From an uncultured Victivallales bacterium (GTDB taxonomy: Bacteria; Verrucomicrobiota; Kiritimatiellia; UBA8416), in the NCBI GenBank assembly GCA_964472315.1, contig CAYYJS010000007.1, positions 14,299-78,298 on the forward strand: a stretch of DNA of 64,000 bases, in the 5' to 3' direction. This document shows, piece by piece, positions 20,736 to 43,516 of the stretch. The notes under the pieces are model-generated. The model was not told where the DNA came from, did not search any database, and was given only the letters and a program-made list of their open reading frames with translations. Every line of letters begins with the position of its first letter. Position 1 is the stretch's first letter. Position numbers and translations under genes: made by a program.

Positions 20736-21956
20736 ATGGCAGTGGATGTTCTGATTCTGAATACGGCGGTGATGGATTTTCGCAGCGCGGACTTCACGTT
20801 CGTCAATGCGCTGGTTGGACCGGGCGGCCTGGCCAAATGCGCGACGCGCGACATGCCGGCCTACACGCAGGCGCAACTGAAGGCGTACCTGGACCGGGGG
20901 TGCGCCACCGCCGGCGGTCCCGGCAATACGGCGCCGCTCGTCGCGCGCGCCGGCGTCGGCATCGCGGCGGGTGTGGTGCTGGGGCGCGGGACCCGCGACG
21001 GACTCGATGTCGTGGGACGGGCCTTTTACGATACCATGACCGCCAACGGCGTCGACATGTCCGCGACGGTGGTGCATCCGGAACTGCCGACCGGCACGAC
21101 GTTCATCTGCGACTCGGACGACGGCGAGCGCGGGGGCATCGGGTACTTTCCCAACGCCAACCATGCGTTTGACTTCGCGATGTTCAAGCCGGCCGTCGAA
21201 CGTCTGCGGCCGCGCATCGTCTATTACATGTATTCCGGTCTTTCCGACCGGGGGGACGCCAACGGCGGCCGCGACCTGGCCGCGTTCATGGCCTGGTGCC
21301 GCGACCAGGGGGCCATCACGATCGCCGACAGTCACACGCTGACGAGCAACCCGGAGGCGCTGATCGATCAGGGGACGCCCGTGGACGAATACCGGCTTCT
21401 GGAGCCGTTGCTCCCCACGCTGGATCTGTTCTTCACGTCCGCGGACGAGGCGAAGATGATCCAGAACACGTTGGGTCCGGCGCGCGCGTGGCGGCGGTAC
21501 GGCGGCGACGAGAACATCCGGGAGGCGCTCGCGTTCCTGACCGGGCGTTTCTGGCGGGACGTTCGCCGGCCGTGCATGTTCGGCGTCACGGTCAAGGACG
21601 GCGCCTATGCGACGTGGATGAATGCCGACGGCGTGAAGACGCCCACGGAGCGTGTGAAGTCGCGCTTCATGATCCGCACCGTGACCGACCTTGTCGGGGC
21701 GGGCGATTCTTTCCGTGCCGGCTTCATCACCTATGTCGCGCGGCATGCCGACGCGTTCCGCGCCGGCATGCTGGACTATCGCGAGGCCATCCAGATGGGC
21801 AACCTGATGGCGACGCTGTACGTGACCGCGCCGCTGTGCGACCGCTACCGCCACATCGCACCGTATGCCGACCTGCTGCGTGTCATCCGCGGCGGGCGGT
21901 CTTTCGATACATTGGATGCACTACGGGAGGAGATCGACCATGACGCACATGCGTAA
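20736..21956 (+). CDS. PfkB-family carbohydrate kinase (ribokinase-like)
   Basis: DLVGAGDSFRAGFI (PfkB signature 2) near the C-terminus; N-terminal ~90-aa extension. Confidence 0.75.
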   Translation: MAVDVLILNTAVMDFRSADFTFVNALVGPGGLAKCATRDMPAYTQAQLKAYLDRGCATAGGPGNTAPLVARAGVGIAAGVVLGRGTRDGLDVVGRAFYDTMTANGVDMSATVVHPELPTGTTFICDSDDGERGGIGYFPNANHAFDFAMFKPAVERLRPRIVYYMYSGLSDRGDANGGRDLAAFMAWCRDQGAITIADSHTLTSNPEALIDQGTPVDEYRLLEPLLPTLDLFFTSADEAKMIQNTLGPARAWRRYGGDENIREALAFLTGRFWRDVRRPCMFGVTVKDGAYATWMNADGVKTPTERVKSRFMIRTVTDLVGAGDSFRAGFITYVARHADAFRAGMLDYREAIQMGNLMATLYVTAPLCDRYRHIAPYADLLRVIRGGRSFDTLDALREEIDHDAHA

Positions 21957-23016
21957 AGCGATGCCCTGGGATGGGCGCGTGGGCAATGGCGCCCAGGTGG
22001 CGGGCATCGAGGTGTCCGAATTGACCGACGGACCGGGGCGGGGCGTGCGTATCGCGTGGGTGAACACGGGTACGCCGTTGCGCTTCAAGGTCGTCATCGA
22101 CCGCGGGCTGGATATCGCCGACGCCTTCTACGGGCAGCATAGTCTGGCCTGGCTGAGCGCGTGCGGCACAGTGGCGCCGCAATCGGATCCCGCGGGCGGA
22201 ACCGAATGGCTGCGGGGGTTCGGGGGCGGGTTGGTCACCACGTGCGGTCTGTCGCATGTCGGCCCGCCGGAACCGGACGCCGGTGACGCGCGGGGCGTCC
22301 ATGGCCGTGCGAGCAACCTGCGCGGCGCGTTGGAGACGGTCCGCGGACCGTCGCTCGCCGCCGGCGACCTCGACATGACGATCGAGGGTGTGGTGCGCGA
22401 GATGCGCCTGTTCGGTCCGCAGCTTGAACTGCGGCGCCGGTACGGTATGCGCGTGGGCGAACCGACGATCCGGATCCGCGATGTCGTCACGAACGTGGGC
22501 AACACGCCGGCGCCACACATGCTGCTCTATCACTGCAACTTCGGATGGCCCCTGATCGATCGGGGCACGCGGCTGCTTTGGAAGGGTGGATGCGAGTCGC
22601 GCGGGTTGCCGATGGACGATGCGATCTTCGCCGCGGGGGGGCGGCCGGACATCTGTCCCGCGCCGGACGATGCGCACCGGGGCTCTACCGAAGCTTGCGG
22701 GTTCATCCGGTCCCGCGCGGGCGGCGGCGGCATGTGTACCGCCGGGGTCCACAACGCCCGACTGGGGTTGGCCTTGCGGATGGATTTCCGCGCCCGTCAG
22801 CTTCCCTGGATCACCAACTGGCAACACTGGGGACCGGGAGAGTACGTCACGGCGCTGGAGCCCGGCACCCATCCGCCGATCGGCCAGCAGGCGGCGCGCG
22901 CGGCGGGCACGCTGATCCTGCTTGCGCCGGGGGAGAGCCGGACGTACGAACTGACGCTGACGGTGCTGGCGGCGAAGGCGGCCATTGCCGACTGGAGGCG
23001 CATGTTCGATGAGTGA
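21940..23016 (+). CDS. Aldose-1-epimerase-like (DUF4432 / galactose mutarotase-like fold) protein
   Basis: RBS GGGAGG; beta-sandwich epimerase-like motifs (HGRASNLRG..., YHCNFGWP). Family assignment is by motif resemblance only. Confidence 0.55.
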   Translation: MTHMRKAMPWDGRVGNGAQVAGIEVSELTDGPGRGVRIAWVNTGTPLRFKVVIDRGLDIADAFYGQHSLAWLSACGTVAPQSDPAGGTEWLRGFGGGLVTTCGLSHVGPPEPDAGDARGVHGRASNLRGALETVRGPSLAAGDLDMTIEGVVREMRLFGPQLELRRRYGMRVGEPTIRIRDVVTNVGNTPAPHMLLYHCNFGWPLIDRGTRLLWKGGCESRGLPMDDAIFAAGGRPDICPAPDDAHRGSTEACGFIRSRAGGGGMCTAGVHNARLGLALRMDFRARQLPWITNWQHWGPGEYVTALEPGTHPPIGQQAARAAGTLILLAPGESRTYELTLTVLAAKAAIADWRRMFDE

Positions 23017-24307
23017 ATCGATGGCGGCACGCAAACACGTTTTCGTGGGGTTCGGGTTCGGACCGATCCAGGCGGGGTTGTTCCTCAAGGAAGCGCACGC
23101 GAGCGGCGCCTTCGAGCGGCTTGTCGTGGCGGAGATCGACCAGCGGCTGGTTGACGCGGTCCGCGCCAACGGCAACCGCTACGTGGTGAACGTGGCGCGG
23201 GCCGACGGCGTCTATCGGGAATCGGTCGACGGCGTGGAAATGCTCAACCCGCGCGTGGACCGCGATCTGGCATGCCTGCGCGAAGCGTTGGCGCGGGCGA
23301 CGGAGATCGTCACATCGCTGCCGTCCGTCGATTTCTATGCGGCCGGGACGCCGTCGGTCGCGTCGTTGATCGCCCAGGGCGTGCGTTCGGACGAAGCGCC
23401 CGGCACGCTGGTCTATACGGCGGAGAACAACAACCATGCGGCCGAGGCGCTCGATGCCGCGGTGGCCGCCGCCGACGGCGCGCCGCGCGGCCGGCCGGTG
23501 CAGTTTCTCAATACCGTGATCGGCAAGATGAGTCAGGTTGTGGCCGATGCCGAGGCCATTCGCGCGCTCGGTATCGCCGGCATGGCGCCGGGCATCGACC
23601 GGGCGTTCCTCGTCGAATCGTTCAACCACATCCTGGTGACGCAGTCGACGCTGGCGGCGCTAAAGCCCGGTATCGGCGTCTTTGAGGAGAAGGCCGACCT
23701 GCTGCCGTTCGAGGAGGCGAAACTCTACGGGCATAACGCGATCCATGCCGTCATGGCGTACCTGTCCGAATGGCGGGGGTATCGGCGCATGAGCGAGGCG
23801 GGCGACGATGCGCTTGTCATGGGCGTGGCGCGTGCCGCCTTCCTCGACGAATCCGGCGTGGCGCTCGTGCGCAAGTACGCGGGGTTGGGCGATACGCTGT
23901 TCACGGAGGCCGGCTATCGGCGCTACGCCGCGGACCTGCTGGCGCGGATGACGAACCGCCATCTGGCGGACGCCGTGGAGCGTGCGGGTAGGGACCCCGT
24001 GCGCAAGCTTGGGCTGTCCGACCGGATCTACGGGGCCATGTCCCTCGCGCTCGGGCAGGGGATATCGCCAGTCAATATGGGACGGGGTGCGGCGGCCGGC
24101 CTGATGAAACTCGTGAGCGAACGCGAACGGCATGGCGTCCCCGCGTCGCTGTCGGAGTCGATCGCGCACCGGCCGCCGCGGGCGTGGGCGCCACCGCTGC
24201 TGGACTGGGTGTGGGCGCGGAACGTATGTCCGCACCGGGATGCCCTGGTCGCGCTTACGATCGACGGTCTGGATTGGCTGGGCGCGCTCAAGGAACATGG
24301 TCGGTGA
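23009..24307 (+). CDS. Mannitol dehydrogenase-family (MtlD-like) NAD-dependent polyol dehydrogenase
   Basis: RBS GGAGG; N-terminal Rossmann HVFVGFGFGPIQAGLF as in mannitol-1-phosphate 5-dehydrogenase; ATG overlaps upstream stop. Confidence 0.6.
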   Translation: MSESMAARKHVFVGFGFGPIQAGLFLKEAHASGAFERLVVAEIDQRLVDAVRANGNRYVVNVARADGVYRESVDGVEMLNPRVDRDLACLREALARATEIVTSLPSVDFYAAGTPSVASLIAQGVRSDEAPGTLVYTAENNNHAAEALDAAVAAADGAPRGRPVQFLNTVIGKMSQVVADAEAIRALGIAGMAPGIDRAFLVESFNHILVTQSTLAALKPGIGVFEEKADLLPFEEAKLYGHNAIHAVMAYLSEWRGYRRMSEAGDDALVMGVARAAFLDESGVALVRKYAGLGDTLFTEAGYRRYAADLLARMTNRHLADAVERAGRDPVRKLGLSDRIYGAMSLALGQGISPVNMGRGAAAGLMKLVSERERHGVPASLSESIAHRPPRAWAPPLLDWVWARNVCPHRDALVALTIDGLDWLGALKEHGR

Positions 24308-24569: not shown

Positions 24570-25724
24570 ATGAAAGCGGTGGAACAGAGGAAGGCACCAT
24601 CGGTGGCGCTGGCGCGGTGCGGGGACTATGGGGCGGGATTGGCGGAGGCGGTGGCGCGCGCGGTGGATCTGTCGGGCGGGCTGGAGGATCTGATCCGGCC
24701 GGGGCAGACGGTGCTGCTCAAGCCCAACCTGCTGACCGATGCCGAGCCCGAGCGCGCCAAGACCACGCATCCGGAGTTGGCGCGGGCGGTGATCCGGCTG
24801 GTGCGCGCCCGCGGCGCCAACTGTGTGGTGAGCGACAGCCCGGCCAGCGTGATGAAGATCGCGCGCGTGTGGGAACGTACGGGCTTCCGGCGGCTGTGCG
24901 AAGAAGAAGGTGTGCCGCTGTTGTCGCTGGAGCAGGAAGGCGCGGAAGCGTTCGAGGAGAACGGCGTGAAATTTGCCGTGGCGCGCCGGGTGCTGGATGC
25001 CGACGTGGTGATCAGTCTGCCGAAGGTCAAGACGCACGTGCTGACCACGTTCACCTGCGGCGTTAAGAACCTGTACGGCTGCGTGCCGGGAATGCGCAAG
25101 TCCGCGATGCATAAGGTGTACTTCCGGCAGGCGCGTTTCTCGCGCGTGCTGGCCGGCATCTATGCGCATGTGCGGCCGGCGTTGACGATTGCCGATGGGG
25201 TGGTGGCGATGGAAGGCAACGGGCCATCTTCGGGCCGGTTGACGACGCTGGGGCTGGTGGCGGCGGCGCGGGATGCGGTGGCCCTGGATGCGGTGCTCTG
25301 CGAAGTGGCGGGTTTGCGGTCGGCGAGCGTGCCCTATCTGCGCGAAATGAAGCGGCGCGGGCTGGGGGAAACGGATTGGCGCGCCGTGGACGTTGTGGGC
25401 GAGTCGATCGATAGCGTGCGGCACCCGTTCCTGGCGCCCAACACGACCGGGGTGCGGCTGATGCCCCAGTGGCTGGTCGATCTGGCGGCGCCGCTGGTGT
25501 GGTGCCGGCCAGGTTTCTCGGAGCAATGCGTCTTCTGCGGGCGGTGCGTGGAGATGTGTCCGGCCGGCGCCTTGAGCATGGAGAAGGGGCAGCGGCCGAA
25601 GTTGAACCCGAAGGCCTGCATCGAGTGCTGCTGCTGCCACGAGGTGTGTCCGCACCATGCGGTGGAGATGCGGCTGAGTCCGCTGCTGCAGCGCATCAAG
25701 AAGCGCGACTCCTGTTTGCGCTGA
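24570..25724 (+). CDS. DUF362 domain protein with C-terminal 2x[4Fe-4S] ferredoxin domain
   Basis: DUF362 core (VLLKPNL...) followed by CVFCGRCVEMCP and CIECCCCHEVCP cluster motifs. Confidence 0.7.
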   Translation: MKAVEQRKAPSVALARCGDYGAGLAEAVARAVDLSGGLEDLIRPGQTVLLKPNLLTDAEPERAKTTHPELARAVIRLVRARGANCVVSDSPASVMKIARVWERTGFRRLCEEEGVPLLSLEQEGAEAFEENGVKFAVARRVLDADVVISLPKVKTHVLTTFTCGVKNLYGCVPGMRKSAMHKVYFRQARFSRVLAGIYAHVRPALTIADGVVAMEGNGPSSGRLTTLGLVAAARDAVALDAVLCEVAGLRSASVPYLREMKRRGLGETDWRAVDVVGESIDSVRHPFLAPNTTGVRLMPQWLVDLAAPLVWCRPGFSEQCVFCGRCVEMCPAGALSMEKGQRPKLNPKACIECCCCHEVCPHHAVEMRLSPLLQRIKKRDSCLR

Positions 25725-25943
25725 GACGGATTGCTGGTCGGGGGAGACCGAGGGAGCCGTCGGTAGGTGTGCGGGGGTCTGTCCGTTCCCGGTCCCCGTT
25801 TCCGTGTGGCCCGGTCGTTGTCGATGCCCGCGTGGGCCTTGCGCGTGCAAAGACGTGCATCCGGCTGTGAATCGCGCTAAGGTCCCACAGGTTAGGAACG
25901 TCTGTTCAGTGGTTTTTCGTCGATACCGGAAGAGAGGGGCGCC

Positions 25944-26780
25944 ATGACGATTATCGAGCCGCATATCCACATGTACTCACGTACGACCGACGACTACCAG
26001 GCGATGTACGCGGCGGGAATACGGGCGTGCGTGGAGCCGTCCTTCTGGATGGGGACGAACCGACGGTATGCCGGGACGTTTTTCGATTACTTCCAGTTGA
26101 TCCTGGAATTCGAGACCGTGCGTGCGCGGCGGTTCGGGATCGACCACTATGCGGCGGTGTCGCTGAATCCGAAAGAGGCGGAGGATGCGGTGCTCGCCGA
26201 CGAGGTGATCGCCGGTTTGGACCCGTACCTGTCGCATGCGCGCTGCGTGGCCATCGGCGAGATCGGGTTCAACGCCATCACGTCCGGCGAGGAACGGGCC
26301 TTCGTCCGTCAACTCGTCCTCGCGCGGGACCGCGGCATGCTTGTCATCGTGCATCTGCCGCACACGAACAAACTGGCCGGCGCGCGCCGGACACTCGCGC
26401 TCATCCGGGAGGTCGGTGTCGATGTGGATCGCGTCGTGATCGACCACAACACGGAGGAGACCATCGCGTTGAGTCATGCGTCGGGCTGCTGGAGCGGCAT
26501 GACCGTGTACCCGATTTCGAAACTGACGCCGGCACGGGTCTCGGAGATCATCCGCGAGCACGGCAGCGAGCGCATGATCGTCAACGGCTCGGCGGACTGG
26601 GGCGTTTCGGACCCGCTCAGCCTGGTCAAAGTGGTCGATTACATGAAGCGGGATGGCCACGATGACGCGACGATCGGCAATCTGGTGTTCAACAATGCGT
26701 CGGCGTTTTACGGGCAATGTTCGAAATGGCGGCCGGAGCTGAACCTGGCGCCGATTCCGCCTCGGGAATTCCAGCGGTGA
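25944..26780 (+). CDS. eboB: TatD-like metal-dependent hydrolase (EboB-like)
   Basis: MTIIEPHIHMY...GEIGFN...VIVHLPH...IDH TIM-barrel hydrolase motifs; first gene of the ebo-type cluster. Confidence 0.7.
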   Translation: MTIIEPHIHMYSRTTDDYQAMYAAGIRACVEPSFWMGTNRRYAGTFFDYFQLILEFETVRARRFGIDHYAAVSLNPKEAEDAVLADEVIAGLDPYLSHARCVAIGEIGFNAITSGEERAFVRQLVLARDRGMLVIVHLPHTNKLAGARRTLALIREVGVDVDRVVIDHNTEETIALSHASGCWSGMTVYPISKLTPARVSEIIREHGSERMIVNGSADWGVSDPLSLVKVVDYMKRDGHDDATIGNLVFNNASAFYGQCSKWRPELNLAPIPPREFQR

Positions 26781-26782
26781 GC

Positions 26783-27682
26783 ATGACGGCGCGGGACAGA
26801 ATGCGGGGTTGGTTGGAGCTGCTGCGGTTGCCCAACCTGCCGACCGTGCCGGGCGATCCGCTGGCCGGCTGGCTGTTGTCGGTGGCCGCGGGCGGGGTGG
26901 CGCCGCGTGCCGGTGCCGCCGGTGTCGCTGGGGCCATGGCGGCGGCCTTGTGTCTCTACCTGTGCGGCATCCTGCTCAACGACGTGGCCGATATCGGCGA
27001 AGACGGTCGCGCAAGGCCGTGGCGGCCGTTGCCGTCCGGACGCGTGCCGTCGCGGGAGGCGGCGCTGGCGGCGACGGCGCTGGCGGGCGGCGCGCTGGTC
27101 GCGGCCTTTCGTGTGTCCGTGGCGACGGGCCTCGTCGCCGCGGTGTTGTCGCTCGCGATTCTGGTGTATACGTTTGTCGCGCGGCGCTGGGCGTACGCGG
27201 GGATGGTCACGATGGGGTGCTGTCGGGGACTGAGCGTACTGCTCGGCGCGTCGGCCGCCGTCGGGCCGTTCGCGCCGGCGGCCCTTGGTGCGGCAGTGGC
27301 GGTGGCCTGTTACGTGATGGCGCTGTCCGCGATCGCCCGCCGCGAGACCGATCGCCGCCGTATCGGCGCGCCGCGCTTTGCGCCGCTGGCGGTGGGTGTC
27401 GTCGGCATCGGTGCGGTCGCCGCGCTGGCCGGCACGGCGCCCGTGGCGGCGGGATTGTGGCTGGCGGCGTTTGTCGCGAGCGGCTGGAGCAATGCCTGGG
27501 CGCTTCGCGGCGTGCCGGAACCCGAACGCGTGGGGCGGACGGTCGGCGCGTTCGTGCGGGGGCTGGTGCCGATGCAGGCGTCGCTCTGCGCGCTGGCGCC
27601 GTGCGGCGCGTGGGTTGGCGGCGCCATGGCGCTGCTGTGGTGCACGAGCGCCGCGCTAGCGCGGCGGTTTCAGGCGAGCTGA
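26783..27682 (+). CDS. eboC: UbiA-family prenyltransferase (EboC-like)
   Basis: NDVADIGED (NDxxDxxxD) prenyl-diphosphate-binding motif; about 8 TM helices. ATG 3 nt after the eboB stop. Confidence 0.8.
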   Translation: MTARDRMRGWLELLRLPNLPTVPGDPLAGWLLSVAAGGVAPRAGAAGVAGAMAAALCLYLCGILLNDVADIGEDGRARPWRPLPSGRVPSREAALAATALAGGALVAAFRVSVATGLVAAVLSLAILVYTFVARRWAYAGMVTMGCCRGLSVLLGASAAVGPFAPAALGAAVAVACYVMALSAIARRETDRRRIGAPRFAPLAVGVVGIGAVAALAGTAPVAAGLWLAAFVASGWSNAWALRGVPEPERVGRTVGAFVRGLVPMQASLCALAPCGAWVGGAMALLWCTSAALARRFQAS

Positions 27683-27694
27683 GGCGGGTCCCGG

Positions 27695-29023
27695 TTGTCG
27701 GATGGCGTGGCGAGAGAAGGGCATGGGGATGGCGTGAAGCGAGTTGTGGCGATTCAAGTGGCGGCGTTGGGGCGCGAGTTCCTGCGCAAGCACGGCTGCG
27801 AACGGCTTTGCGGGCTGCCGATACGGGCCGCCGACGCGGTCTTTCCGGCGGTCACCTGCACGGCGCAGGCGGGTTTCCGAACGGCGAGCCGTCCCGCCCG
27901 GCATGGCATGGTCGCGAACGGGTTTCTCCAGCGCGAGCTGGCCCGGACGTTGTTCTGGGAACAGTCGGCCCGGTTGGTATCGGGCGAACGCATCTGGGAT
28001 CGCGCCCGCGCGCATGGCGCCCGTGTCGCTCTGCTGTTCTGGCAGCAGAGTCTGGGGGAGAGCGTGGACATAGTGCTCTCGCCGGCGCCGGTGCACAAGC
28101 ATCACGGGGGCATGATCCCGGACTGCTATGGACAACCGCCGGAGCTGTACGCCGATGTCACGCGCGCGGTGGGTCGCCCCTTCAACCTCGCGCGCTACTG
28201 GGGACCGATGGCGTCCGCCGAATCGTCGCGCTGGATTGCGGAGGCCACGTCCCGCGTGCTGGAACGTGCCGAGGCGCCGGATGTCTGCTTCACGTATCTG
28301 CCGGCCCTGGACTACGATCTTCAGCGTTACGGTCCCGACCATCCCCGCGCGAGTCGCGCGCTGGGCGATGTGCTGAAACAGATTGACGGCGTTGTCGCCG
28401 CGGCCCGGAAAGGCGGGTACGAGATTCTGATCTTCGGGGACTACGCCATCGAAGCGTGTTCCGCGCCGGTCTTCCCGAACCGGGCGTTGCTGGAGGCCGG
28501 GCTGATGCGGGTACGGCGGGTGCGCGGCATGCTGTATCCGGACCTGCATGCGAGCCGCGCCTTCGCGGCGGTCGACCATCAGGTGGCCCACGTCTACGTC
28601 CGCGAGGCCGCGGATATCGAGGCCGCGGCGCGTGTGCTACGCGGCTTGGACGGGGTGGGGGAAGTGATGGACGCCGCACGGCAGACCGGGGCGGGTATCG
28701 CGCATCCGCGTGGCGGCGAACTGGTTGCGGTTGCGGCGCCGGGCCGTTGGTTTGCCTACGCGTGGTGGGCGGCTCGGCGGGAGGCCCCCGAGTATGCGAC
28801 GCATGTCGACATTCACAACAAGCCAGGGTATGACCCCGCGGAACTTTTCGCCGGGATGCCCCCATGGCAGGTCAGCCTCGACGCGGCCAGAATCCGAGGC
28901 ACCCACGGGCGTGTCGGCGCCGGGATGGAGATCGCCTGGGCATCGACGATGATTGACGGGACTCCGTCCGACATGGCAGAACTGGCGGGTCATTTGTCGA
29001 CTTGGCTGAATGAAGGGTTGTGA
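27695..29023 (+). CDS. eboF: Alkaline-phosphatase-superfamily nucleotide pyrophosphatase/phosphodiesterase-like protein (EboF-like)
   Basis: AP-superfamily motifs including the C-terminal GTHGRVGAGMEIAW (G-HG...M) block. An alternative GTG start at 27734 is possible. Confidence 0.7.
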   Translation: MSDGVAREGHGDGVKRVVAIQVAALGREFLRKHGCERLCGLPIRAADAVFPAVTCTAQAGFRTASRPARHGMVANGFLQRELARTLFWEQSARLVSGERIWDRARAHGARVALLFWQQSLGESVDIVLSPAPVHKHHGGMIPDCYGQPPELYADVTRAVGRPFNLARYWGPMASAESSRWIAEATSRVLERAEAPDVCFTYLPALDYDLQRYGPDHPRASRALGDVLKQIDGVVAAARKGGYEILIFGDYAIEACSAPVFPNRALLEAGLMRVRRVRGMLYPDLHASRAFAAVDHQVAHVYVREAADIEAAARVLRGLDGVGEVMDAARQTGAGIAHPRGGELVAVAAPGRWFAYAWWAARREAPEYATHVDIHNKPGYDPAELFAGMPPWQVSLDAARIRGTHGRVGAGMEIAWASTMIDGTPSDMAELAGHLSTWLNEGL

Positions 29024-29026
29024 CGC

Positions 29027-30208
29027 ATGGCAGGTTCATCGGAAACGGTGCAACAACGGTTCGCCGTCGAATTCGCGTATCCGGTTGTCTTTACGCATGG
29101 GGTGTTCGACCCGGCCAACCCGGCGCTGGCGGATGTCCTGCGGGCGCGCCGCGAGGATGTGCCGCACCGTGCGCTTGTCTATATCGACGATGGTGTCTGG
29201 CAGGCGTGGCCCGATCTGCCGGAGCGGGTGGCGGCTTATCTTGGCGGTCTCGGCGATGTGGCCGTGCTGGCGTCCGAGCCCCGGGCTGTGCCCGGCGGCG
29301 AGCGTGCCAAGCAAGGCTGGGATATCGTGCGCGGCATCATGACCGGCATCGGCGATAACCGTCTCTGCCGCCACAGCTTCGTGATCGCCATTGGCGGCGG
29401 AAGCATGCTCGACATGGTCGGTTTCGCCGCCTCCATCGTACACCGCGGCGTGCGTCTGATCCGCCTGCCGACGTCGGTGCTGGCGCAGGCCGACGGCGGC
29501 GTTGGCGTCAAGAATGGGATGGATGAGCACGGCGTGAAGAACTATGTCGGCAGCTTCGCTCCGCCGGCGGCCGTCATCAACGACTACGATTTTCTCCGGA
29601 CGCTGCCGGATCGGTATTGGCGCGGGGGCGTTTCAGAAGCCTTCAAGGTTGCGATGATCAAGGACGCGGACTTTTTCGACGAGCTGTGCGGCATGGCCGT
29701 CCGGTTGCGCGCGCGCGATGCGCGCGCGATCGAACGGGTGGTCCGAAGGACGGCGGAACTGCATCTGGAACATATCCGGAGCAGTGGCGACCCGTTCGAG
29801 TTCGGCACGGCGCGGCCACTCGACTTCGGTCACTGGGTGGCGCACAAGCTCGAAGTGCTTTCGCACTACACGGTAAGCCATGGCGAAGCGGTGGCCATCG
29901 GCATCGCGATCGACGCCTGCTACGCGGCGAGTCAGGGCCTGTTGCCGGCCGCCGACCGCGACCGGGCGCTCGTGGCGATGGAAAGCATTGGTCTGCCGCT
30001 GTTCCACCCGTTGCTGACGCGACGGACGTCCTCGGGGACGTTGTCGGTTCTGGCCGGTTTGGAGGAGTTCCGCGAACACCTCGGCGGTCGGTTGACCGTG
30101 ACGCTGCCCGACGGCATTGGACGCGGACGGGAGGTGCACGACATGGACCATGGCTTGATCGAGGCCGCGGTCCGATGCCTGGAGGATAGGAGCGTCCATG
30201 CGCCTTGA
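29027..30208 (+). CDS. eboD: 3-dehydroquinate-synthase-like sugar-phosphate cyclase (EboD-like)
   Basis: DHQS fold motifs: IAIGGGSMLDMVGFAAS, GVKNGMDEHGVKNYVGSF and metal-binding His pairs. Confidence 0.8.
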   Translation: MAGSSETVQQRFAVEFAYPVVFTHGVFDPANPALADVLRARREDVPHRALVYIDDGVWQAWPDLPERVAAYLGGLGDVAVLASEPRAVPGGERAKQGWDIVRGIMTGIGDNRLCRHSFVIAIGGGSMLDMVGFAASIVHRGVRLIRLPTSVLAQADGGVGVKNGMDEHGVKNYVGSFAPPAAVINDYDFLRTLPDRYWRGGVSEAFKVAMIKDADFFDELCGMAVRLRARDARAIERVVRRTAELHLEHIRSSGDPFEFGTARPLDFGHWVAHKLEVLSHYTVSHGEAVAIGIAIDACYAASQGLLPAADRDRALVAMESIGLPLFHPLLTRRTSSGTLSVLAGLEEFREHLGGRLTVTLPDGIGRGREVHDMDHGLIEAAVRCLEDRSVHAP

Positions 30209-31355
30209 GACGCAGCCGCCCGTGCATCTGACCTATTGCCTGAACGTCCATCCCGGCGAGACGTGGGGCGAGAACCTGGCGGCGATCGAGACGTACGCCG
30301 TCGCCGTCCGGGACGCCGTCGGCGCGGGCAAACCGTTCGGGTTGGGCCTGCGGTTGAGCGCGCGGGCGGCCGAGACGCTGGCGGCGCCCGCGGTTCTGGC
30401 GCGGTTCCGGGAGACGCTGGCCCGTCACGATTTCTATGTGTTCACCGTCAACGGCTTCCCGTATGGCGACTTCCATGGAAAACCGGTCAAGACCAACGTC
30501 TACCGGCCGGATTGGCGCGATCCGCATCGGCTTGTCTACACGAAGCGCCTGACGGATATCCTCGGCGCGCTCCTGCCGGAGGGCGTTGCCGGCAGCATCA
30601 GCACCGTGCCTGTATCGTATGGCGACTGGATGCGGACCGGCGACGACTTTGCCGCCGCCCTGGCCAACCTGCGGGCCTGTGCCGCCTACCTGGCGGCGAC
30701 GGAGCGGCGGACCGGGCGGCGGATCCGATTGGCGCTCGAACCGGAGCCGGACTGCTGCATCGAAGATACGGCCGGCGCCATCGACTTTTTCGACCGCGCC
30801 ATGGCGGGGTGTGGCGACCGCTGCTTCCGCGAGTATGTCGGCATCTGTTTCGATACGTGTCACCTGGCCGTCCGGTTCGAGGACCCGACGGCGAGTCTGC
30901 TGGCGCTCGTCGCGGCGGGGATCGCGGTGCCGAAGGTCCAGGTGAGCGCGGCGTTGCGGTTGCCGTGCGCGGCCCGGGGCCGCGAGCGTCTGGCGCGCTT
31001 CGGCAATCCCGTCTACCTGAACCAGGTGAAGGTGCGCGAGGGCGGTTTGGTCGTCGCGTACGACGACCTGCCGGCTTTTCTGGCGTCGCCGGCCACCGAG
31101 GACGCGGAGGCGCGCATTCACTGCCATGTGCCACTGCACTTCGACGGCGACGCCGAGGTCGGATCGACACACGCCGGGTTGACGCCGTCGTTCTTCCGTG
31201 CCGCCATGCGTGCCGGCGTCGATCACTTCGAAATCGAAACGTACACCTTCGGTGTGCTGCCGCCGGAATTACAGGCGGGCGGCATCGTCGACAGTGTCGC
31301 CGCGGAGTATCGCTGGGTACTGGCGCGGCTGCCGCAAGCGTGCGCGGCATCGTAG
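30198..31355 (+). CDS. eboE: Xylose-isomerase-like TIM-barrel protein (EboE-like)
   Basis: Sugar phosphate isomerase/epimerase TIM-barrel; overlaps the eboD stop by 11 nt. Confidence 0.7.
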   Translation: MRLETQPPVHLTYCLNVHPGETWGENLAAIETYAVAVRDAVGAGKPFGLGLRLSARAAETLAAPAVLARFRETLARHDFYVFTVNGFPYGDFHGKPVKTNVYRPDWRDPHRLVYTKRLTDILGALLPEGVAGSISTVPVSYGDWMRTGDDFAAALANLRACAAYLAATERRTGRRIRLALEPEPDCCIEDTAGAIDFFDRAMAGCGDRCFREYVGICFDTCHLAVRFEDPTASLLALVAAGIAVPKVQVSAALRLPCAARGRERLARFGNPVYLNQVKVREGGLVVAYDDLPAFLASPATEDAEARIHCHVPLHFDGDAEVGSTHAGLTPSFFRAAMRAGVDHFEIETYTFGVLPPELQAGGIVDSVAAEYRWVLARLPQACAAS

Positions 31356-31376: not shown

Positions 31377-32249
31377 CTACAGCCAGAGCGGCATCGGCCC
31401 CGGGGTCTCGCGGTCCAGCCGGCGGGACGCCAGAAGCGCGTCCAGGGCGGCGAGCATGCCGGGCTTGTCTTTCGGCAGGCGGCCTTCCAGAGGCACGACG
31501 TTGGAGGCGTGATTGGCGCGGAAGACCGTGCTCGCGAGGGCGGTGCCGGCGATGAGCGCCCGCAGTTCGTGGACGACCTGCCATTCGGTCAGTGGCGTGA
31601 ACCGGCCGGCGGCCGTGTCGTCGTACAGCGGTGTGCCGGGGGTCGGCACCACACGCAACGCCGACAGGAGTCGCGGTTGCATGCGGGTGACGGCGGCGGC
31701 CGTCCGTTCGGCATGCGCGTCGCTGCGGGCGGCGCCGCCGAGGCCGAGGAGGATCATGACCGACAGGCGCAGACCGGCGGTCTGCGCCAGGATGCCGGCC
31801 TGAACCATGCCGGTGGCGGTCTCGCCCTTGTGGCAGTCGGCGAGAATGGACTCGTCGCCGCTTTCCAGCCCCATGTACAGAGTGTGCAGTCCGCGCGCGC
31901 GCAGGGCGCGCAGTTCGGCCTCGGACTTGCGTGCGATCGAGCTTCCGTTGGCGTAGAGACTGACGCGTGTCAGACCGGGCAGCGCCTCCCGGAGCAGATC
32001 GAGCATGGCGGCCAGTTCGTCGAAGGGGCGCGCCATGACGTCGCCGTCCGCCAGGAAGACGCGAGACGCGCGGGGCGAAAGGCGGGCTTCCGCGCGGATG
32101 AGCCGACGCACGGCATCCAGCGACAGCCGGCGGCAGGGGATGCCGCGATACATGCCGCAGAACGTGCAGCGATTGTGCGGGCATCCCCGGTCGACCTGCA
32201 GGATCAGACTGTCGGCTTCGGCCGGGGGGCGGTAGAGCGGCATATTCAT
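31377..32249 (-). CDS. Radical SAM protein
   Basis: CPHNRCTFCGM (CxxxCxxC) 20 aa from the N-terminus. Start at MNMPLYRPP (32249); the long ORF upstream of it is low-complexity. Confidence 0.75.
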   Translation of the reverse strand: MNMPLYRPPAEADSLILQVDRGCPHNRCTFCGMYRGIPCRRLSLDAVRRLIRAEARLSPRASRVFLADGDVMARPFDELAAMLDLLREALPGLTRVSLYANGSSIARKSEAELRALRARGLHTLYMGLESGDESILADCHKGETATGMVQAGILAQTAGLRLSVMILLGLGGAARSDAHAERTAAAVTRMQPRLLSALRVVPTPGTPLYDDTAAGRFTPLTEWQVVHELRALIAGTALASTVFRANHASNVVPLEGRLPKDKPGMLAALDALLASRRLDRETPGPMPLWL

Positions 32250-32253
32250 GGGG

Positions 32254-33201
32254 TCAGAGGTCGAGGGTGAGTTGTCCGCGGACGGTGACTTTGCGTCCCG
32301 ACGACAGGGCGGGATCGGACGTGTAGTACACGACGAATCGGACGCCGGGGAACTCCGCGGCGAGGGCGTCGCGGATGTAGTTCTCGACGGCGACGACATT
32401 CGAGTCATCGTCGTCCGAGAACCCCACGCTGATCGGCTTATCGAGGCCGCGCATGTGCGCGATGCGGATGACGTGTTCGACGAAATCGCGTATGGCGAAC
32501 TGCTTGCGCTCCTCGGTATCGGGCGAGGCGGTGACATCCGAGCCGAACAGGCGGCGGAACTCCGGGGACATGACGCCGTGGTACTTGCAGTGGTTGAGGT
32601 AGTAGTCGAGAAACTCCCTGTCCAGTTCGAAGAGGTGACCGGGGTCGAAGCAGGCGGCGTAGCCGCGCAGATTGGTGAGCATAACCCGCTTCTCCGACTC
32701 GTCGAGCACGACATCGATGAAGTACTCGACCGCGGCGCGGATGACGGAGGGACTGTGGCCGCGGGCGGTGACGATCGCGAAGAGGCGACCCTCGACGAGG
32801 GTTTGGCGGAACTTGCGGAAGCTGGGGGCGGCCGATGTCTCGCCGCGCACGACCTTGTCGATGGCGGCGCGCGTATCGCGCAGGAAGACGTTTTCGTTGT
32901 CGACGTCGATGTCGCGGAACTCCCGGAATGCCTCCTCCCAGTTGTCGTGAGGGGGGCGGTAATGCTCGCGATCCTTGCGGATGACGCTGAACACGGATGT
33001 GGACACGGCGTGCGGGACCCAGTCGCCGGCGTCGGTGCGCCGTTCCAGGTGGATGCGTGTGGGCATGTGGAAGATGTTATCGTCCCAGTCGAAGATGTAG
33101 TACTTCAGATCGCGGTCGGCGACCGAATAGTTGACCGGATGCCGGGGGCCGGGTTGGCCATCTTTGCGCTGGGGTGTCACAGAGCGGAGAGCATACCGCA
33201 A
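32254..33201 (-). CDS. Hypothetical protein, possibly HAD-like (YYIFDWDDNIF motif); partner of the radical SAM gene
   Basis: 315 aa; 4-bp gap to the radical SAM gene. FDWDDN resembles a HAD motif I (DxDx[T/V]) variant, but assignment is uncertain. Confidence 0.5.
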   Translation of the reverse strand: MRYALRSVTPQRKDGQPGPRHPVNYSVADRDLKYYIFDWDDNIFHMPTRIHLERRTDAGDWVPHAVSTSVFSVIRKDREHYRPPHDNWEEAFREFRDIDVDNENVFLRDTRAAIDKVVRGETSAAPSFRKFRQTLVEGRLFAIVTARGHSPSVIRAAVEYFIDVVLDESEKRVMLTNLRGYAACFDPGHLFELDREFLDYYLNHCKYHGVMSPEFRRLFGSDVTASPDTEERKQFAIRDFVEHVIRIAHMRGLDKPISVGFSDDDDSNVVAVENYIRDALAAEFPGVRFVVYYTSDPALSSGRKVTVRGQLTLDL

Positions 33202-33912: not shown

Positions 33913-34053
33913 ATAATAGAGTTGACGTCCCGTGATGGGCCTGCCACACTTTTCGGATGCTTAGACCGGGCAGCCGTGTCAGGCACATGACGCGGCGCCG
34001 ACGGGCGGGCGCCCGGAGCTGTACGGATATTGACCCGGAACCGGAGGAAGGAC

Positions 34054-36216
34054 ATGGCCAAGCCGATCGACCTCATTGCGGCAAAACGGAGAGAGGCCGT
34101 CATACGCCTCTTCGAGCAGAAGTTCCAAGCGCACACGCGCATCACGGTGGGGTCCGCCACGTGCGAGAACGCGGCGGGCGCTTCGGAAGTCCATGCGCGG
34201 TTGCAGGCGCTGATGGATGAGCACTGCCCTCAGGGCGTCGTGGTCAGCCGTGTCGGGTGCGCGGGCAAGTGCGATATGGAGCCGGTCGTGACGGTGATTT
34301 CGCGCGGTACGATTCCGACCAAGTACGTGAACATGACGCCCCGGCGGGTGGAGCAGGTTTTCCGGGACCATATTCTGGGCGGCAAACCGGTGGAAGCCAT
34401 GTCGATGCGTTACAAGGCCGGGATCACGCATGCCGAACGCGTGGTCAGCGTCTGCGAGTGTGAGGTCTGCCTGAAGAATGGCGGCAAGCAGGTCGAGGAA
34501 GCGTTCCAGGCCGCCATCGAAGAGGCGGGACTGTCCGACCGCGTGGTGGTCATGCACTCGGCCTCGCAAGGGTTGGACGATATCGGGCCTGTGGCGCTCG
34601 TCTATCCGGACGACGTCATGTACCAGGAGATGACGCCGGATAGGGCTCGTGAGGTCGTGAAGAACCATTTCGTCGGCGGACAGCCCGTGGCGGAGTACGC
34701 CTGGTCGGGGGATCGTCTGACCAACCGATTTCTTCCGGTCTTCGGCGATGTTCCCTTTTTCGGCAAGCAGCTTCGCCTGACGCTTCGCAACTGCGGCGTG
34801 ATCGATCCGGAGAACCTGGACGAGTACTTGGCGGTGCGCGGTTATGAGGCCGCGGCGCGTGTGCTGACCGACGGTCAGGCGCAGGCCGTGATCGAGGCCG
34901 TCAAAGCGTCCGGCCTCCGCGGTCGCGGCGGCGGCGGGTTCTCCACGGGCACGAAGTGGGCCTTCGCGGCTCAGCAGCAGTCCGACGAGAAGTTCATCAT
35001 CTGCAACGCCGACGAGGGCGACCCCGGCGCGTTCATGGATCGCAGCACGATCGAAGGCGATCCCCACACCATTTTGGAGGGGATGATCATCGGGGGGTAC
35101 GCGATAGGCGCGACCCGCGGTTTCATCTACATCCGTGCGGAGTATCCGCTGGCGATCGTCCGTCTGGAGAAGGCCATCGCCGCCGCGCGTGCGGCGGGCA
35201 TCCTCGGCAAGCGCGTGATGGGTTCGGACTACGACTTCGATATCGAAGTGCGGCTGGGCGCCGGCGCATTTGTCTGCGGCGAGGAGACGGCGCTGATTCA
35301 CTCCATCGAAGGCAAGCGGGGCATGCCGCGTCCGCGTCCGCCGTATCCATCCGTCGAGGGGCTGTGGGGCAAGCCGACCGTCATCAACAACGTTGAAACG
35401 TTCGCGAACATCCCCGTGGTCATCCTGGATGGCGCCGAGTGGTTCAAGTCGCTCGGGACGAAGACCAGCGCGGGCACGAAGGTGTTTGCGCTTGCCGGCG
35501 ATGTGAACAACACGGGGTTGATCGAAGTGCCGATGGGCACGACCCTGCGCGATGTCGTCTACGGGGTCGGCGGCGGGATCAAAGGCGGGCGGGCGTTCAA
35601 GGCGGTTCAGACGGGCGGTCCGGCCGGCGGATGCCTGCCGGCCTCCGCGCTCGATACGCCGATCGATTACGACACGCTGGCGCGCGCGGGCAGCATCATG
35701 GGCAGCGGCGGCATGATCGTCATGGACGACGGCGCGTGCATGGTCAACGTCGCCAAGTTCTTCCTGGATTTCACGCAGAGCGAATCATGCGGCAAGTGCA
35801 CGCCCTGCCGCGAGGGCACGAAGCGCATGCTCGAGATCCTGACGCGCATCACGGCCGGCGAAGGGCGGGAGGACGATATCGACAAACTGCTGCGGCTTGC
35901 CGATACCGTCAAGAAGACGTCGTTGTGCGGGCTTGGCCAGGCGGCGCCGAATCCGGTGATCAGCACGATCACGCATTTCCGCGGCGAGTACGAAGCGCAT
36001 ATACGGGACAAGCACTGTCCGAGCGGCGTGTGCAAGGCACTGGCGAGTTTCGAGATCGATGCCGGGAAGTGCATCGGTTGCGGCGCTTGTCGCAAGGCCT
36101 GCCCGGTGCATTGCATCGCGGGTGAGACACGGAAGGTGCACGTCATCGACCAGTCCCGCTGCGTGAAGTGCGGGAGTTGTTATGAGGTCTGCAAGTTCGA
36201 TGCGGTAAAGAGGTGA
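34054..36216 (+). CDS. hydB: [FeFe]-hydrogenase NuoF-like flavoprotein subunit (HydB/HndC-like) with two N-terminal thioredoxin-like [2Fe-2S] domains and C-terminal 2x[4Fe-4S]
   Basis: RBS GGAGGAAGG; NADH/FMN-binding GLRGRGGGGFSTGTKW, SLCGLGQ (N3 cluster); CIGCGACRKACP and CVKCGSCYEVC ferredoxin motifs. Confidence 0.85.
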   Translation: MAKPIDLIAAKRREAVIRLFEQKFQAHTRITVGSATCENAAGASEVHARLQALMDEHCPQGVVVSRVGCAGKCDMEPVVTVISRGTIPTKYVNMTPRRVEQVFRDHILGGKPVEAMSMRYKAGITHAERVVSVCECEVCLKNGGKQVEEAFQAAIEEAGLSDRVVVMHSASQGLDDIGPVALVYPDDVMYQEMTPDRAREVVKNHFVGGQPVAEYAWSGDRLTNRFLPVFGDVPFFGKQLRLTLRNCGVIDPENLDEYLAVRGYEAAARVLTDGQAQAVIEAVKASGLRGRGGGGFSTGTKWAFAAQQQSDEKFIICNADEGDPGAFMDRSTIEGDPHTILEGMIIGGYAIGATRGFIYIRAEYPLAIVRLEKAIAAARAAGILGKRVMGSDYDFDIEVRLGAGAFVCGEETALIHSIEGKRGMPRPRPPYPSVEGLWGKPTVINNVETFANIPVVILDGAEWFKSLGTKTSAGTKVFALAGDVNNTGLIEVPMGTTLRDVVYGVGGGIKGGRAFKAVQTGGPAGGCLPASALDTPIDYDTLARAGSIMGSGGMIVMDDGACMVNVAKFFLDFTQSESCGKCTPCREGTKRMLEILTRITAGEGREDDIDKLLRLADTVKKTSLCGLGQAAPNPVISTITHFRGEYEAHIRDKHCPSGVCKALASFEIDAGKCIGCGACRKACPVHCIAGETRKVHVIDQSRCVKCGSCYEVCKFDAVKR

Positions 36217-36227
36217 GAGAACAACCG

Positions 36228-37985
36228 ATGAGCACAGAGGTTAAACTGACGATTGACGGAATTCCGACCGCGGCCGAGCCCGGCACGACGGTCATGCAGG
36301 CCGCGGACGACATTGGCATCCGGATTCCGCGGCTCTGTTACCACCCGAGTCTAAGCGTGCTCGGCGCCTGCCGAATCTGCATAGTCGAGGTCGAGGGGCA
36401 GCGGAACCCGGTGGCCTCGTGCGCCTTCCCGGTTGCCGAGGGCATGAAGGTGCGCACGTCGTCGCCGCTGCTGAGGCGATTGCGGCGCGACATTGTGGAA
36501 CTGCTGTTGGACAACCATCCGAAGGAATGCACGACGTGCGAGCGCTGCGGAAGCTGCGAACTGCAGGACCTGGCCCACAGCCTGGGCGTGCGCGAGCGGT
36601 TGTACGAGGGCGAGCGCAAACGCTTCGAGCGCGACTGCAGTTCGCAGGCCGTCATTCGCGATCCCGAGAAGTGCATCCTCTGCGGCCGGTGCGTGCGCGT
36701 GTGCGAGGAAGTACAGGGCGTGACCAATCTCAGCCAGCAGTACCGGGGATTCCTCAACTTCGTGGCGCCGGCGCACAACGACAAGATGGTCGATTCGGTT
36801 TGTATCCAGTGCGGGCAGTGCATCAACGTATGTCCGACCGCCGCCTTCGTGGAGCACAACAGCACGGATGTGGTGTTGGAAGCGCTGGCCAACCCGAACC
36901 TGCACGTCGTCGTGCAGACGGCGCCGTCCATTCGTGCCGCGCTGGGCGAAGGCTTCGGTTATCCGCCGGGAACGGCCGTCACCGGTAAGATGGTGACCGC
37001 CTCGCGCCTGATGGGGTTCGACAAGGTTTTCGATACGAACTTCAGCGCCGACCTGACGATCGTCGAAGAAGCGACGGAATTCCTCTCCCGCATGAAGGCT
37101 GGCGAGCGGCTTCCCCTGATCACCTCCTGCTCGCCGGGGTGGGTCAACTTCCTCGAGCATTTCTACCCCGAGTTGATCCCGTACGCGTCAAGCTGCAAGT
37201 CGCCGATGAGCATGCTTTCGACTTTGCTCAAGACATACTACGCCGACATCGCCGGGATCGATCCGAAGAATATCTTCGTTGTGGCGGTGATGCCCTGTAC
37301 GGCCAAGAAGTATGAGTGCGGGCGTCCGGAACATGTGGCGCCGTGGGGCAAGCCGTATACCGACGCGGTGTTGACGACGCGTGAGTACATCTGGCTGGCC
37401 AAGTGCCTCGGGGTCGACTTCGTGAATCTGCCGGACGGCGAGTTCGACAGTCCCCTGGGCGAGTCTTCAGGCGCCGGCGACATCTTTGGCGCGACCGGTG
37501 GCGTCATGGAAGCCGCCCTGCGGACCGCCTACGAGAAGGTTACGGGGAAGATATGCCCCGACCTGGACTTCGTGGCCGTCCGCGGCGTCGAAGGTCTCAA
37601 GGAGGCGGAGATCGACATCGACGGGACGATCGTTCGTGTCGCCGTGTCCAACGGACTGAACAACGCGAAGACGTTGCTGGATGCGGTGATTCAAGGTGAG
37701 CGGCAGTACCATCTGATCGAGATCATGGCGTGCCCTGGCGGATGTGTCGCCGGCGGCGGACAGCCGTATCCGCCGGACGGGATGTATGTTCTGGATCCCG
37801 AACTGACCCGGAAACGCGCGCAGGCGCTCTACGCCATCGACGCCGGCAAGAAACTGCGCAAGTCCCACGAGAATCCATCGATCATACGGCTCTACGAGAA
37901 GTTTCTGGGCGAACCGAACGGTCACAAGTCCCACGAGCTTCTGCATACATCCTATAACGCCAAGGAACCACGAGGGATACGATGA
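36228..37985 (+). CDS. hydA: [FeFe]-hydrogenase catalytic subunit (HydA/HndD-like) with N-terminal [2Fe-2S] and [4Fe-4S] domains; atypical L1 motif TSCSPGW
   Basis: RBS AAGAGGTG. H-cluster motifs L2 MPCTAKKYE and L3 EIMACPGGCVAGGGQP are present; L1 reads ITSCSPGW (canonical TSCCPxW). Confidence 0.85.
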   Translation: MSTEVKLTIDGIPTAAEPGTTVMQAADDIGIRIPRLCYHPSLSVLGACRICIVEVEGQRNPVASCAFPVAEGMKVRTSSPLLRRLRRDIVELLLDNHPKECTTCERCGSCELQDLAHSLGVRERLYEGERKRFERDCSSQAVIRDPEKCILCGRCVRVCEEVQGVTNLSQQYRGFLNFVAPAHNDKMVDSVCIQCGQCINVCPTAAFVEHNSTDVVLEALANPNLHVVVQTAPSIRAALGEGFGYPPGTAVTGKMVTASRLMGFDKVFDTNFSADLTIVEEATEFLSRMKAGERLPLITSCSPGWVNFLEHFYPELIPYASSCKSPMSMLSTLLKTYYADIAGIDPKNIFVVAVMPCTAKKYECGRPEHVAPWGKPYTDAVLTTREYIWLAKCLGVDFVNLPDGEFDSPLGESSGAGDIFGATGGVMEAALRTAYEKVTGKICPDLDFVAVRGVEGLKEAEIDIDGTIVRVAVSNGLNNAKTLLDAVIQGERQYHLIEIMACPGGCVAGGGQPYPPDGMYVLDPELTRKRAQALYAIDAGKKLRKSHENPSIIRLYEKFLGEPNGHKSHELLHTSYNAKEPRGIR

Positions 37986-38949: not shown

Positions 38950-38965
38950 GCATGCCTACACCAGG
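38940..38965. terminator. 26-nt near-perfect palindrome (CCTGGCGTAGGCA|TGCCTACACCAGG) between convergent REC gene and hypB: candidate bidirectional terminator
   Basis: Inverted repeat with one mismatch, centred between two converging stop codons 6 nt apart; no U-tract. Confidence 0.4.
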
Positions 38966-40117: not shown

Positions 40118-40119
40118 GG

Positions 40120-41139: not shown

Positions 41140-41165
41140 ATCGCTTCATCCAACGCAACTTCTTA

Positions 41166-43412: not shown

Positions 43413-43516
43413 CGCCCGGGCCAGGCGATAGACCGACGGACGGAAGCCGACGCCCTGGACGGTGCCGGTCAGACTGTACGTGCGGCGGACAAGCAGCGTC
43501 GGTTGGGGTGCGGGCG

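Follow-up and report, generated by a model that had tools for sequence, protein, structure and literature searches.

When the ebo operon was first defined, in 2016, it was an orphan gene cluster with a predicted isoprenoid-cyclitol product, and a variant without eboA was noted at that time (Yurchenko et al., PMC5133447). The very widespread cluster kept its orphan status for a decade and has recently been tied to thallusin, a cross-kingdom signal in seaweed growth. Here we analyze an eboA-less cluster in the order eboB-eboC-eboF-eboD-eboE (BCFDE), found on contig CAYYJS010000007.1 of an uncultured Victivallales bacterium; the whole 64-kb stretch that was analyzed (GC content, ~65%) is referred to as the window.

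Work of 2024, as summarized in PMC12904256, has EboD making DEI. The prenyltransferase UbiA-297 farnesylates 8-HQA (8-hydroxyquinoline-2-carboxylic acid); EboC homologues farnesylate hydroxyquinoline-2-carboxylates (PMC9235831). The link to thallusin comes from a preprint of May 2026 (bioRxiv 10.64898/2026.05.21.724671), in which 35 strains were compared and ebo genes were found in 27 of 27 thallusin producers and 0 of 8 nonproducers. There, the ebo core genes were needed for synthesis of saccharoquinoline and thallusin, and single deletions of eboB, eboC, eboE, or eboF abolished thallusin in Stieleria maiorica, an eboA-less planctomycete. Labelled L-aspartate was incorporated into the quinoline core, and EboC of three phyla farnesylated 6,7,8-trihydroxyquinaldate. 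No enzyme was found for the oxidative ring opening that leads from saccharoquinoline to thallusin, for which oxygen- or iron-assisted chemistry was suspected. In the same preprint, a survey of 124,295 genomes recorded 3,403 ebo clusters, whose gene order is phylum specific and from which eboA or eboD may be lost, in phyla that include Verrucomicrobiota, Planctomycetota, and Desulfobacterota.

A compact ebo operon in the window

Five closely packed genes, eboB-eboC-eboF-eboD-eboE, occupy positions 25944-31355 on the plus strand (Table 1). The region from 24.5 to 33.2 kb was mapped from an open reading frame (ORF) listing combined with a codon-position filter on GC content at third positions (GC3), which gave 0.79 to 0.85 for the five genes. 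Two nucleotides separate the eboB stop from the eboC ATG, 12 nt lie between eboC and eboF, and 3 nt between eboF and eboD; eboD and eboE overlap by 11 nt. Because no spacer exceeds 12 nt and the last two genes overlap, the five almost certainly form a single transcription unit. A first-pass annotation of the stretch had proposed five same-strand genes of ebo composition, and the ORF listing, family matches, and synteny bear this out; the EboD-EboE overlap that it gave also holds, and its 3 nt between EboB and EboC is 2 nt, a difference in counting. The same organism is represented by three independent Logan assemblies, in which gene calls yielded identical products of 299, 442, 393, and 385 amino acids (aa), and the TTG start of eboF was matched by the independent gene call. 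The survey cited above counted at least four ebo genes as a cluster; five are contiguous here. We conclude that the locus is probably a functional, five-gene, EboA-less BCFDE operon of the PVC type, which would make a farnesylated quinoline meroterpenoid of the saccharoquinoline/thallusin type. That function is the best supported because all four core genes and eboD are present.

An EboE scan of GTDB representative genomes gave 80 loci, whose architectures were established by tblastn and profile searches. The closest (EboE 60% identical) is labelled "uncultured Victivallales"; others belong to Lentisphaerae, Kiritimatiellae, Verrucomicrobiota, Phycisphaerae/Planctomycetaceae, and Desulfobacteraceae metagenome-assembled genomes (MAGs), and the more distant ones to Cyanobacteria, Bacteroidota, Alphaproteobacteria, and Myxococcota. 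In GTDB, both Lentisphaeria and Kiritimatiellia fall inside Verrucomicrobiota. The commonest architecture was B-C-F-D-E, sometimes with an O-methyltransferase gene next to it, seen in ~20 complete loci and in ~10 contigs truncated to C-F-D-E or F-D-E; a Phycisphaerae contig reached via EboC (L086) was also BCFDE. These ~30 loci come from Lentisphaerae, Kiritimatiellae, Verrucomicrobiota, and Phycisphaerae-type MAGs, and because the same gene order recurs in so many independent genome loci, the linkage is far beyond chance. Cyanobacterial and Bacteroidota loci had the canonical ABCDEF order. In a third architecture, a protein of ~90 aa without a family match is encoded directly upstream of eboB in nine loci (strong in L047, L050, L053, L066, L069, and L071; weak in L006, L009, and L016). 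It occurs in clusters of Verrucomicrobiae, Chthoniobacterales, and Desulfobacteraceae type, in which EboB is ~40% identical to that of the window, and could correspond to the "EboG" that Yurchenko et al. described in 2016.

An EboA profile was built from four loci and validated by its cyanobacterial member, which passes NF035937; it detected EboA in ten loci, none of the BCFDE type. No match to EboA (NF035937/PF28008) was found in a six-frame translation of the whole window at E values up to 10. The profile search and the gene map thus agree with the first-pass annotation, which had listed the order B-C-F-D-E and no EboA. Profile searches of the window were also negative for the small eboB-adjacent protein, present among BCFDE loci only in L016, and for the ebo-adjacent O-methyltransferase. 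In its gene set, its gene order, and its lack of EboA, the cluster is typical of the lineage, and it is of a known, already surveyed kind. What distinguishes it is modest: an apparently anaerobic host, a lineage-specific EboC subfamily below the NCBI cut-offs, and a unique His275Asn substitution in EboE.

Comparison with described ebo systems

The canonical eboABCDEF clusters of Bacteroidota, Cyanobacteria, and eustigmatophyte plastids (PMC5133447) contain the same five enzyme families; their EboD and EboE match the same NCBIfam models as those of the window, where conserved residues are kept. The window differs in its B-C-F-D-E order and lack of EboA; identity to the canonical proteins is only 33 to 46%, and on the EboC model its EboC reaches 136 bits, compared with 380 bits for a cyanobacterial EboC. 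Stieleria maiorica Mal15 (Planctomycetota) shares with the window the lack of eboA and membership in the PVC superphylum, and it is the genetically validated case that shows a core of eboB, eboC, eboE, and eboF to suffice (10.64898/2026.05.21.724671). The ebo genes of this planctomycete are scattered, whereas those of the window form a tight operon that includes eboD; Mariniblastus EboE (L074/L075) is unclustered and ~35% identical.

The Actinomycetota-type ebo/ino cluster (Saccharomonospora sp. CNQ-490, Streptomyces) has EboA and, instead of EboD, an inositol-phosphate synthase, whereas in the window EboD is present and EboA is missing. The likeness lies in the prenyltransferase: window EboC scores near-equally on the SCO3242 model, and many named EboC homologues belong to the SCO3242 family. 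In Streptomyces, the SCO3242 prenyltransferase gene is located between the inositol-phosphate synthase gene and genes for TIM-barrel, EboA, TatD, EboE-like, and phosphodiesterase proteins. The eboG-type variant (Acidobacteria, Deinococcales, Herpetosiphon; PMC5133447) resembles the window in lacking eboA and in its non-ABCDEF order, but it has a small conserved extra gene, while the small eboB-adjacent protein of the nine loci has no homologue in the window. The EDB cluster of Pseudomonas fluorescens NZI7 is homologous to the six ebo genes (PMC12904256); it carries eboA and three extra genes and is tied to nematode repellence and indole metabolites, whereas the window has no such extras.

Identity of EboB, EboF, and EboD

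Conserved columns were defined as those at least 93% conserved in alignments with all detected homologues (42 to 81 sequences for each protein), and 277 of 279 are kept over the five Ebo proteins. Domain searches recovered the content that the first-pass annotation had described, namely, a TatD-like protein, a UbiA prenyltransferase, a type I phosphodiesterase, a 3-dehydroquinate (DHQ)-synthase-like protein, and a xylose-isomerase-like TIM barrel.

EboB matched PF01026 (TatD_DNase) weakly, with 39.9 bits, as expected for EboB. It is 58 to 80% identical to EboB of BCFDE loci and ~40 to 46% identical to the EboA-adjacent EboB of canonical clusters; all 45 of its conserved columns are kept, including H7/H9, H137, H168, and D218. 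The housekeeping TatD is encoded by a separate gene of the window (6110-7099, 198 bits), and EboB qualifies as an Ebo-type TatD-like hydrolase distinct from it. EboF, which matched PF01663 with 132.3 bits, shares 50 to 67% identity with its counterparts in BCFDE loci and 32 to 36% with canonical EboF; with 64 of 64 conserved columns kept, it is an Ebo-type PF01663 phosphodiesterase. EboD scored 515.8 bits on NF004852 (cut-off, 333) and 202.9 bits on the aroB model TIGR01357, under the cut-off of 305. EboDs from canonical ABCDEF operons (a cyanobacterium and Membranihabitans marinus) scored 553 to 557 bits on NF004852 and failed the aroB model, so that NF004852 behaves as an EboD-type model. 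The only one of the 88 conserved EboD columns to change carries a conservative substitution, T150S.

EboC and the ebo prenyltransferases

The top NCBIfam match of EboC, NF035940, gave 135.8 bits, under the equivalog cut-off of 250, and was nearly tied by the model for the SCO3242 family prenyltransferases (130.9 bits); ubiA/menA-type models scored at most 25 bits. Syntenic EboCs from three other BCFDE loci scored 111 to 141 bits on NF035940, next to 380 bits for the cyanobacterial protein and 241 bits for a Desulfobacteraceae EboC. The low score is therefore a property of the lineage and not of this gene, and the position of eboC between eboB and eboF is conserved in ~20 loci. UbiA-297, the characterized EboC homologue, has an Asp-rich motif, Tyr-56 in place of the substrate-binding Arg, and a second Arg, R145 (PMC9235831). 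Window EboC keeps N66-D67xxD70xxxD74, Y59, and R148 as well as 21 of 21 conserved columns; D67/D70/D74, Y59, and R148 correspond to the motif, Tyr-56, and R145 of UbiA-297, respectively.

Since the SCO3242-family gene sits within the Actinomycetota ebo cluster, together with genes for PF28008 EboA, TatD, TIM-barrel, and phosphodiesterase proteins, both families that match EboC best are ebo prenyltransferases. The scores of the syntenic EboCs, this linkage, and the retained UbiA-297 residues lead us to assign EboC to the ebo prenyltransferase clade, as a branch specific to the PVC lineage, rather than to MenA/UbiA paralogues. Judged by sequence, the PVC EboCs are a separate subfamily, intermediate between the two ebo prenyltransferase families.

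An asparagine at an otherwise invariant position of EboE

EboE scored 409.8 bits on NF035939 (TIM_EboE, equivalog; cut-off, 250) and keeps 60 of 61 conserved columns. The sole deviation is residue 275, which is Asn here and His in 80 of 80 genome loci and 119 of 119 best database homologues (199 in total), and which is flanked by the invariant residues Y273 and Q276. Because EboE with Asn275 is identical in three independent assemblies, the substitution is not an assembly error; it makes this protein a natural point mutant at an invariant residue of EboE. A test for relaxed selection, based on the identity of EboE relative to that of EboB, EboD, and EboF, gave no signal of accelerated divergence of EboE (ratio, 0.826, compared with 0.801 ± 0.054 for other pairs).

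The AlphaFold2 (AF2) model of EboE (predicted local distance difference test [pLDDT] score, 92.4) is a xylose-isomerase-like TIM barrel, and the top Foldseek matches to it were UlaE, xylose isomerases, and sugar 3-epimerases, with template modeling (TM) scores of ~0.5. A sequence search for related solved structures returned only noise, at an E value of ~0.4. With hhalign, only the CxDTCH (CFDTCH) motif aligned with Escherichia coli endonuclease IV (13 columns) and only the LEPEP/IEPKP region aligned with Streptomyces rubiginosus xylose isomerase (24% probability). The aligned motifs support canonical metal-site roles for E181, D219, and H222; they do not place residue 275. In the secondary structure of the model, this residue lies in a loop before a β-hairpin (277-288), between the barrel strands bearing D219 and H308/H310, and it may be a family-specific cap residue.

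Predicted pathway and alternative readings

The EboD reaction, the farnesylation of hydroxyquinaldic acids by EboC, and the need for eboB, eboC, eboE, and eboF have been shown for homologues in the literature; by homology to validated producers, a similar pathway would operate in this organism. The five genes would be transcribed as one unit, probably from the 219-nt upstream gap. EboB (a metallohydrolase), EboE (a TIM-barrel protein of the isomerase/dehydratase type), and EboF (a phosphodiesterase) would convert a cyclitol and L-aspartate to a hydroxylated quinoline-2-carboxylate, to which membrane-bound EboC would attach a farnesyl group, possibly also cyclizing it. In aerobic producers, such a saccharoquinoline-type meroterpenoid is oxidatively rearranged to thallusin. 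The first-pass annotation had described a prenylated cyclitol-like product and a link to export of scytonemin precursors in cyanobacteria, a picture now superseded by the link of the ebo core genes to saccharoquinoline and thallusin; the scytonemin-export phenotype is probably indirect, since Nostoc punctiforme makes thallusin (10.64898/2026.05.21.724671).

The window also encodes an HydABC-type [FeFe] hydrogenase (34030-38473, plus strand; Nuo51-like, HydA, and 2Fe-2S thioredoxin-like subunits) followed by a response regulator, a set of hypB/hypA/hypE/hypF genes with an HycI maturation protease (38956-43969, minus strand), and a sulfhydrogenase-like [NiFe] hydrogenase with diaphorase-like subunits (44052-48020, minus strand; small subunit, FAD/NAD subunit, and Fe-S subunit). 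These hydrogenase and maturation genes suggest that the host is a fermentative anaerobe. Given such a host and the oxygen- or iron-assisted last step suspected in the preprint, the end product here may be unoxidized or a variant.

Several points weigh against saccharoquinoline/thallusin-type synthesis at this locus. The experimentally validated planctomycete ebo genes are scattered and not a BCFDE-type cluster, and the Pirellulales-type EboE (L074/L075) is only ~35% identical to window EboE. EboC falls under the cut-off of its best model, EboE does not have the otherwise invariant His at 275, the thallusin link comes from a 2026 preprint, and the hydrogenase sets make an oxidative conversion to thallusin doubtful. 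It is possible, though we do not think it likely, that the operon is functional and that its pathway ends at or diverges to a nonoxidized product, which could be a farnesyl-hydroxyquinoline resembling saccharoquinoline or some other prenylated derivative of a cyclitol; its role might be in metal chelation, in membrane redox chemistry, or in signaling unrelated to algae. The hydrogenase- and ferredoxin-rich gene context fits such an outcome, as do the preprint's missing ring-opening enzyme and suggestion of dioxygen- or iron-assisted chemistry (10.64898/2026.05.21.724671), the lack of EboA and an EboG-like protein in BCFDE clusters, and the PVC EboC as a subfamily of its own; the extra O-methyltransferase in nine related loci hints at product variation. 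The core enzymes are nevertheless orthologous to those of validated thallusin producers, eboA-less planctomycetes among them, and 64 kb of sequence cannot exclude oxygen exposure in the habitat. Only tentatively do we suggest that the bare BCFDE operon of anaerobic PVC bacteria (no EboA or EboG, its own EboC, and here Asn275 EboE) is a distinct variant with a nonthallusin product under anoxia, for example, a nonoxidized or differently tailored farnesyl-hydroxyquinoline that would act in chelation, in membrane redox chemistry, or in signaling among anaerobes; we hold this rather improbable, and if true, it would uncouple ebo from algal morphogenesis.

The substitution in EboE raises the question of whether the cluster is crippled, with His275Asn inactivating a core enzyme, no end product, and the operon in early decay. 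That position 275 is otherwise His throughout, between two invariant residues, and that eboE is individually essential in S. maiorica (10.64898/2026.05.21.724671) would favor decay; all five ORFs are intact, however, EboE has lost no other conserved column and has not diverged in excess, the Asn275 allele is fixed in three assemblies, and Asn can replace His as a hydrogen bond donor or metal ligand, which makes decay unlikely. Still less probable, and effectively excluded, is a "metabolite traffic" role in which the Ebo proteins would export some unrelated precursor, a function proposed in Nostoc for scytonemin monomers. NCBIfam does name EboE a "metabolite traffic protein," and precursor accumulated in ebo mutants (Klicki et al. 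2018, PMC6282210), but the window has no scytonemin or other pigment genes, and the preprint ascribes the Nostoc phenotype to indirect effects, N. punctiforme being a thallusin maker (10.64898/2026.05.21.724671). A chance adjacency of primary-metabolism paralogues (MenA/UbiA, AroB, and housekeeping TatD) might be read into database names, since NCBI calls NF004852 "3-dehydroquinate synthase" and JGI calls EboC homologues "4-hydroxybenzoate polyprenyltransferase." This reading is refuted, and its chance of being right is negligible: the aroB score is below cut-off and shared in kind by canonical EboDs, ubiA/menA-type models score EboC at 25 bits or less, TatD has its own gene elsewhere in the window, and synteny is conserved across phyla. 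The ebo identity given in the first-pass annotation therefore survives, as the best matches are not MenA or AroB paralogues and the linkage is conserved.

For saccharoquinoline/thallusin-type synthesis, which we prefer, the locus offers a compact, minimal, EboA-free five-gene version in an apparently strictly fermentative host. It would be convenient for heterologous reconstitution and provides a natural experiment on the need for oxygen in thallusin formation. By itself, the locus changes nothing in current knowledge.

Gene map and surroundings of the operon

The features of the operon and its borders are listed in Table 1. As the first-pass annotation had stated, the nearest upstream gene encodes a DUF362-ferredoxin protein and the gap is exactly 219 nt. 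Around the operon we found no sigma-70 consensus promoter and no riboswitch or other Rfam RNA (the sole Rfam match of the window is a tRNA-Ser), and terminator-like sites were no more frequent there than expected from shuffled sequence. With neither a sigma-70 consensus nor an Rfam riboswitch, the promoter role of the 219-nt gap is presumptive.

Table 1. Features of the ebo operon and its immediate borders (positions in the window)
Feature	Position	Strand	Remarks
DUF362 + 4Fe-4S protein	24570-25724	+	Followed by the 219-nt gap
Upstream intergenic region, 219 nt	25725..25943	+	Presumed promoter/5' untranslated region; sole sizeable noncoding gap before the ebo genes
eboB, TatD-like amidohydrolase-fold metallohydrolase, 278 aa	25944..26780	+	PF01026
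eboC, membrane UbiA-type prenyltransferase, 299 aa	26783..27682	+	NF035940 is the best NCBIfam match
eboF, alkaline-phosphatase-superfamily type I phosphodiesterase, 442 aa	27695..29023	+	PF01663; TTG start
eboD, DHQ-synthase-like sugar-phosphate cyclase, 393 aa	29027..30208	+	NF004852
eboE, xylose-isomerase-like TIM-barrel protein, 385 aa	30198..31355	+	NF035939
EboE Asn275 codon AAC	31020..31022	+	His in all other homologues compared (motif V-Y-L-H-Q)
Radical S-adenosylmethionine (SAM) gene	31377-32249	-	Convergent, 21 nt past eboE
308-aa protein, no family assigned	32254-33180	-	Pairs with the radical-SAM gene

Flanking genes were considered as ebo partners and rejected. When the DUF362, radical-SAM, 308-aa, PfkB, DUF4432, and MtlD-like proteins were compared with the 80 ebo loci by tblastn, no matches were found, and all-against-all clustering of flanking ORFs gave no family common to the window and other loci. 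Lacking homologues in the 80 loci, they are accidental neighbors; the co-occurrence with ebo that the first-pass annotation had raised for the DUF362 protein and for the convergent radical-SAM/308-aa pair was not seen in any of them.

The DUF362 protein carries a fused 2x[4Fe-4S] ferredoxin domain and scored 193.7 bits on the NCBIfam "Npun_F2552 family" model (cut-off, 500). The radical-SAM protein (290 aa) has a Cx4Cx2C-spaced motif, GCPHNRCTFC, with HpnJ and B12-dependent radical-SAM methyltransferases as weak best matches; the 308-aa protein has an "FDWDDN" motif and no Pfam or NCBIfam match. The pair was found only in contigs of this organism and never adjoining ebo elsewhere. Farther upstream on the plus strand lie genes for a PfkB-like kinase (20736-21956, 406 aa), an aldose-epimerase-like DUF4432 protein (21865-23016), and a mannitol-dehydrogenase-like protein (23009-24307), probably a separate sugar/polyol catabolic operon that is not conserved with ebo.

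Two kinds of accessory gene adjoin ebo in related loci. A class-I SAM O-methyltransferase of ~335 aa, with weak BchU/CrtF-like matches, lies beside ebo in L005, L008, L009, L016, L019, L024, L027, L031, and L033; these include the nearest relative of the window, and in these lineages the enzyme may tailor the ebo product. In several PVC loci (L012, L014, L015, L017, L021, L026, and L081), the genes directly upstream of eboC encode an extracytoplasmic function (ECF) sigma factor and a large protein that is anti-sigma-like and has repeats of squalene-cyclase/prenyltransferase type; this pair, which is not in the window, may be a dedicated regulator.

Elsewhere in the window, a 222-aa protein (12791-13459, minus strand) matches the Hedgehog N-terminal signalling domain PF01085 with 42 bits and is probably a bacterial zinc peptidase-like relative. 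An HsdM methylase of type I restriction-modification is encoded beside a YhcG/DUF1016 PDDEXK nuclease that carries, in fusion, a domain like the C-terminal one of type I R subunits (58121-61643, minus strand), and a DUF4143 AAA ATPase gene (54313-55533) lies beside tRNA-Ser(CGA) (54077-54168). Together, the HsdM/YhcG and DUF4143 genes may form a small island, either for defence or mobile.

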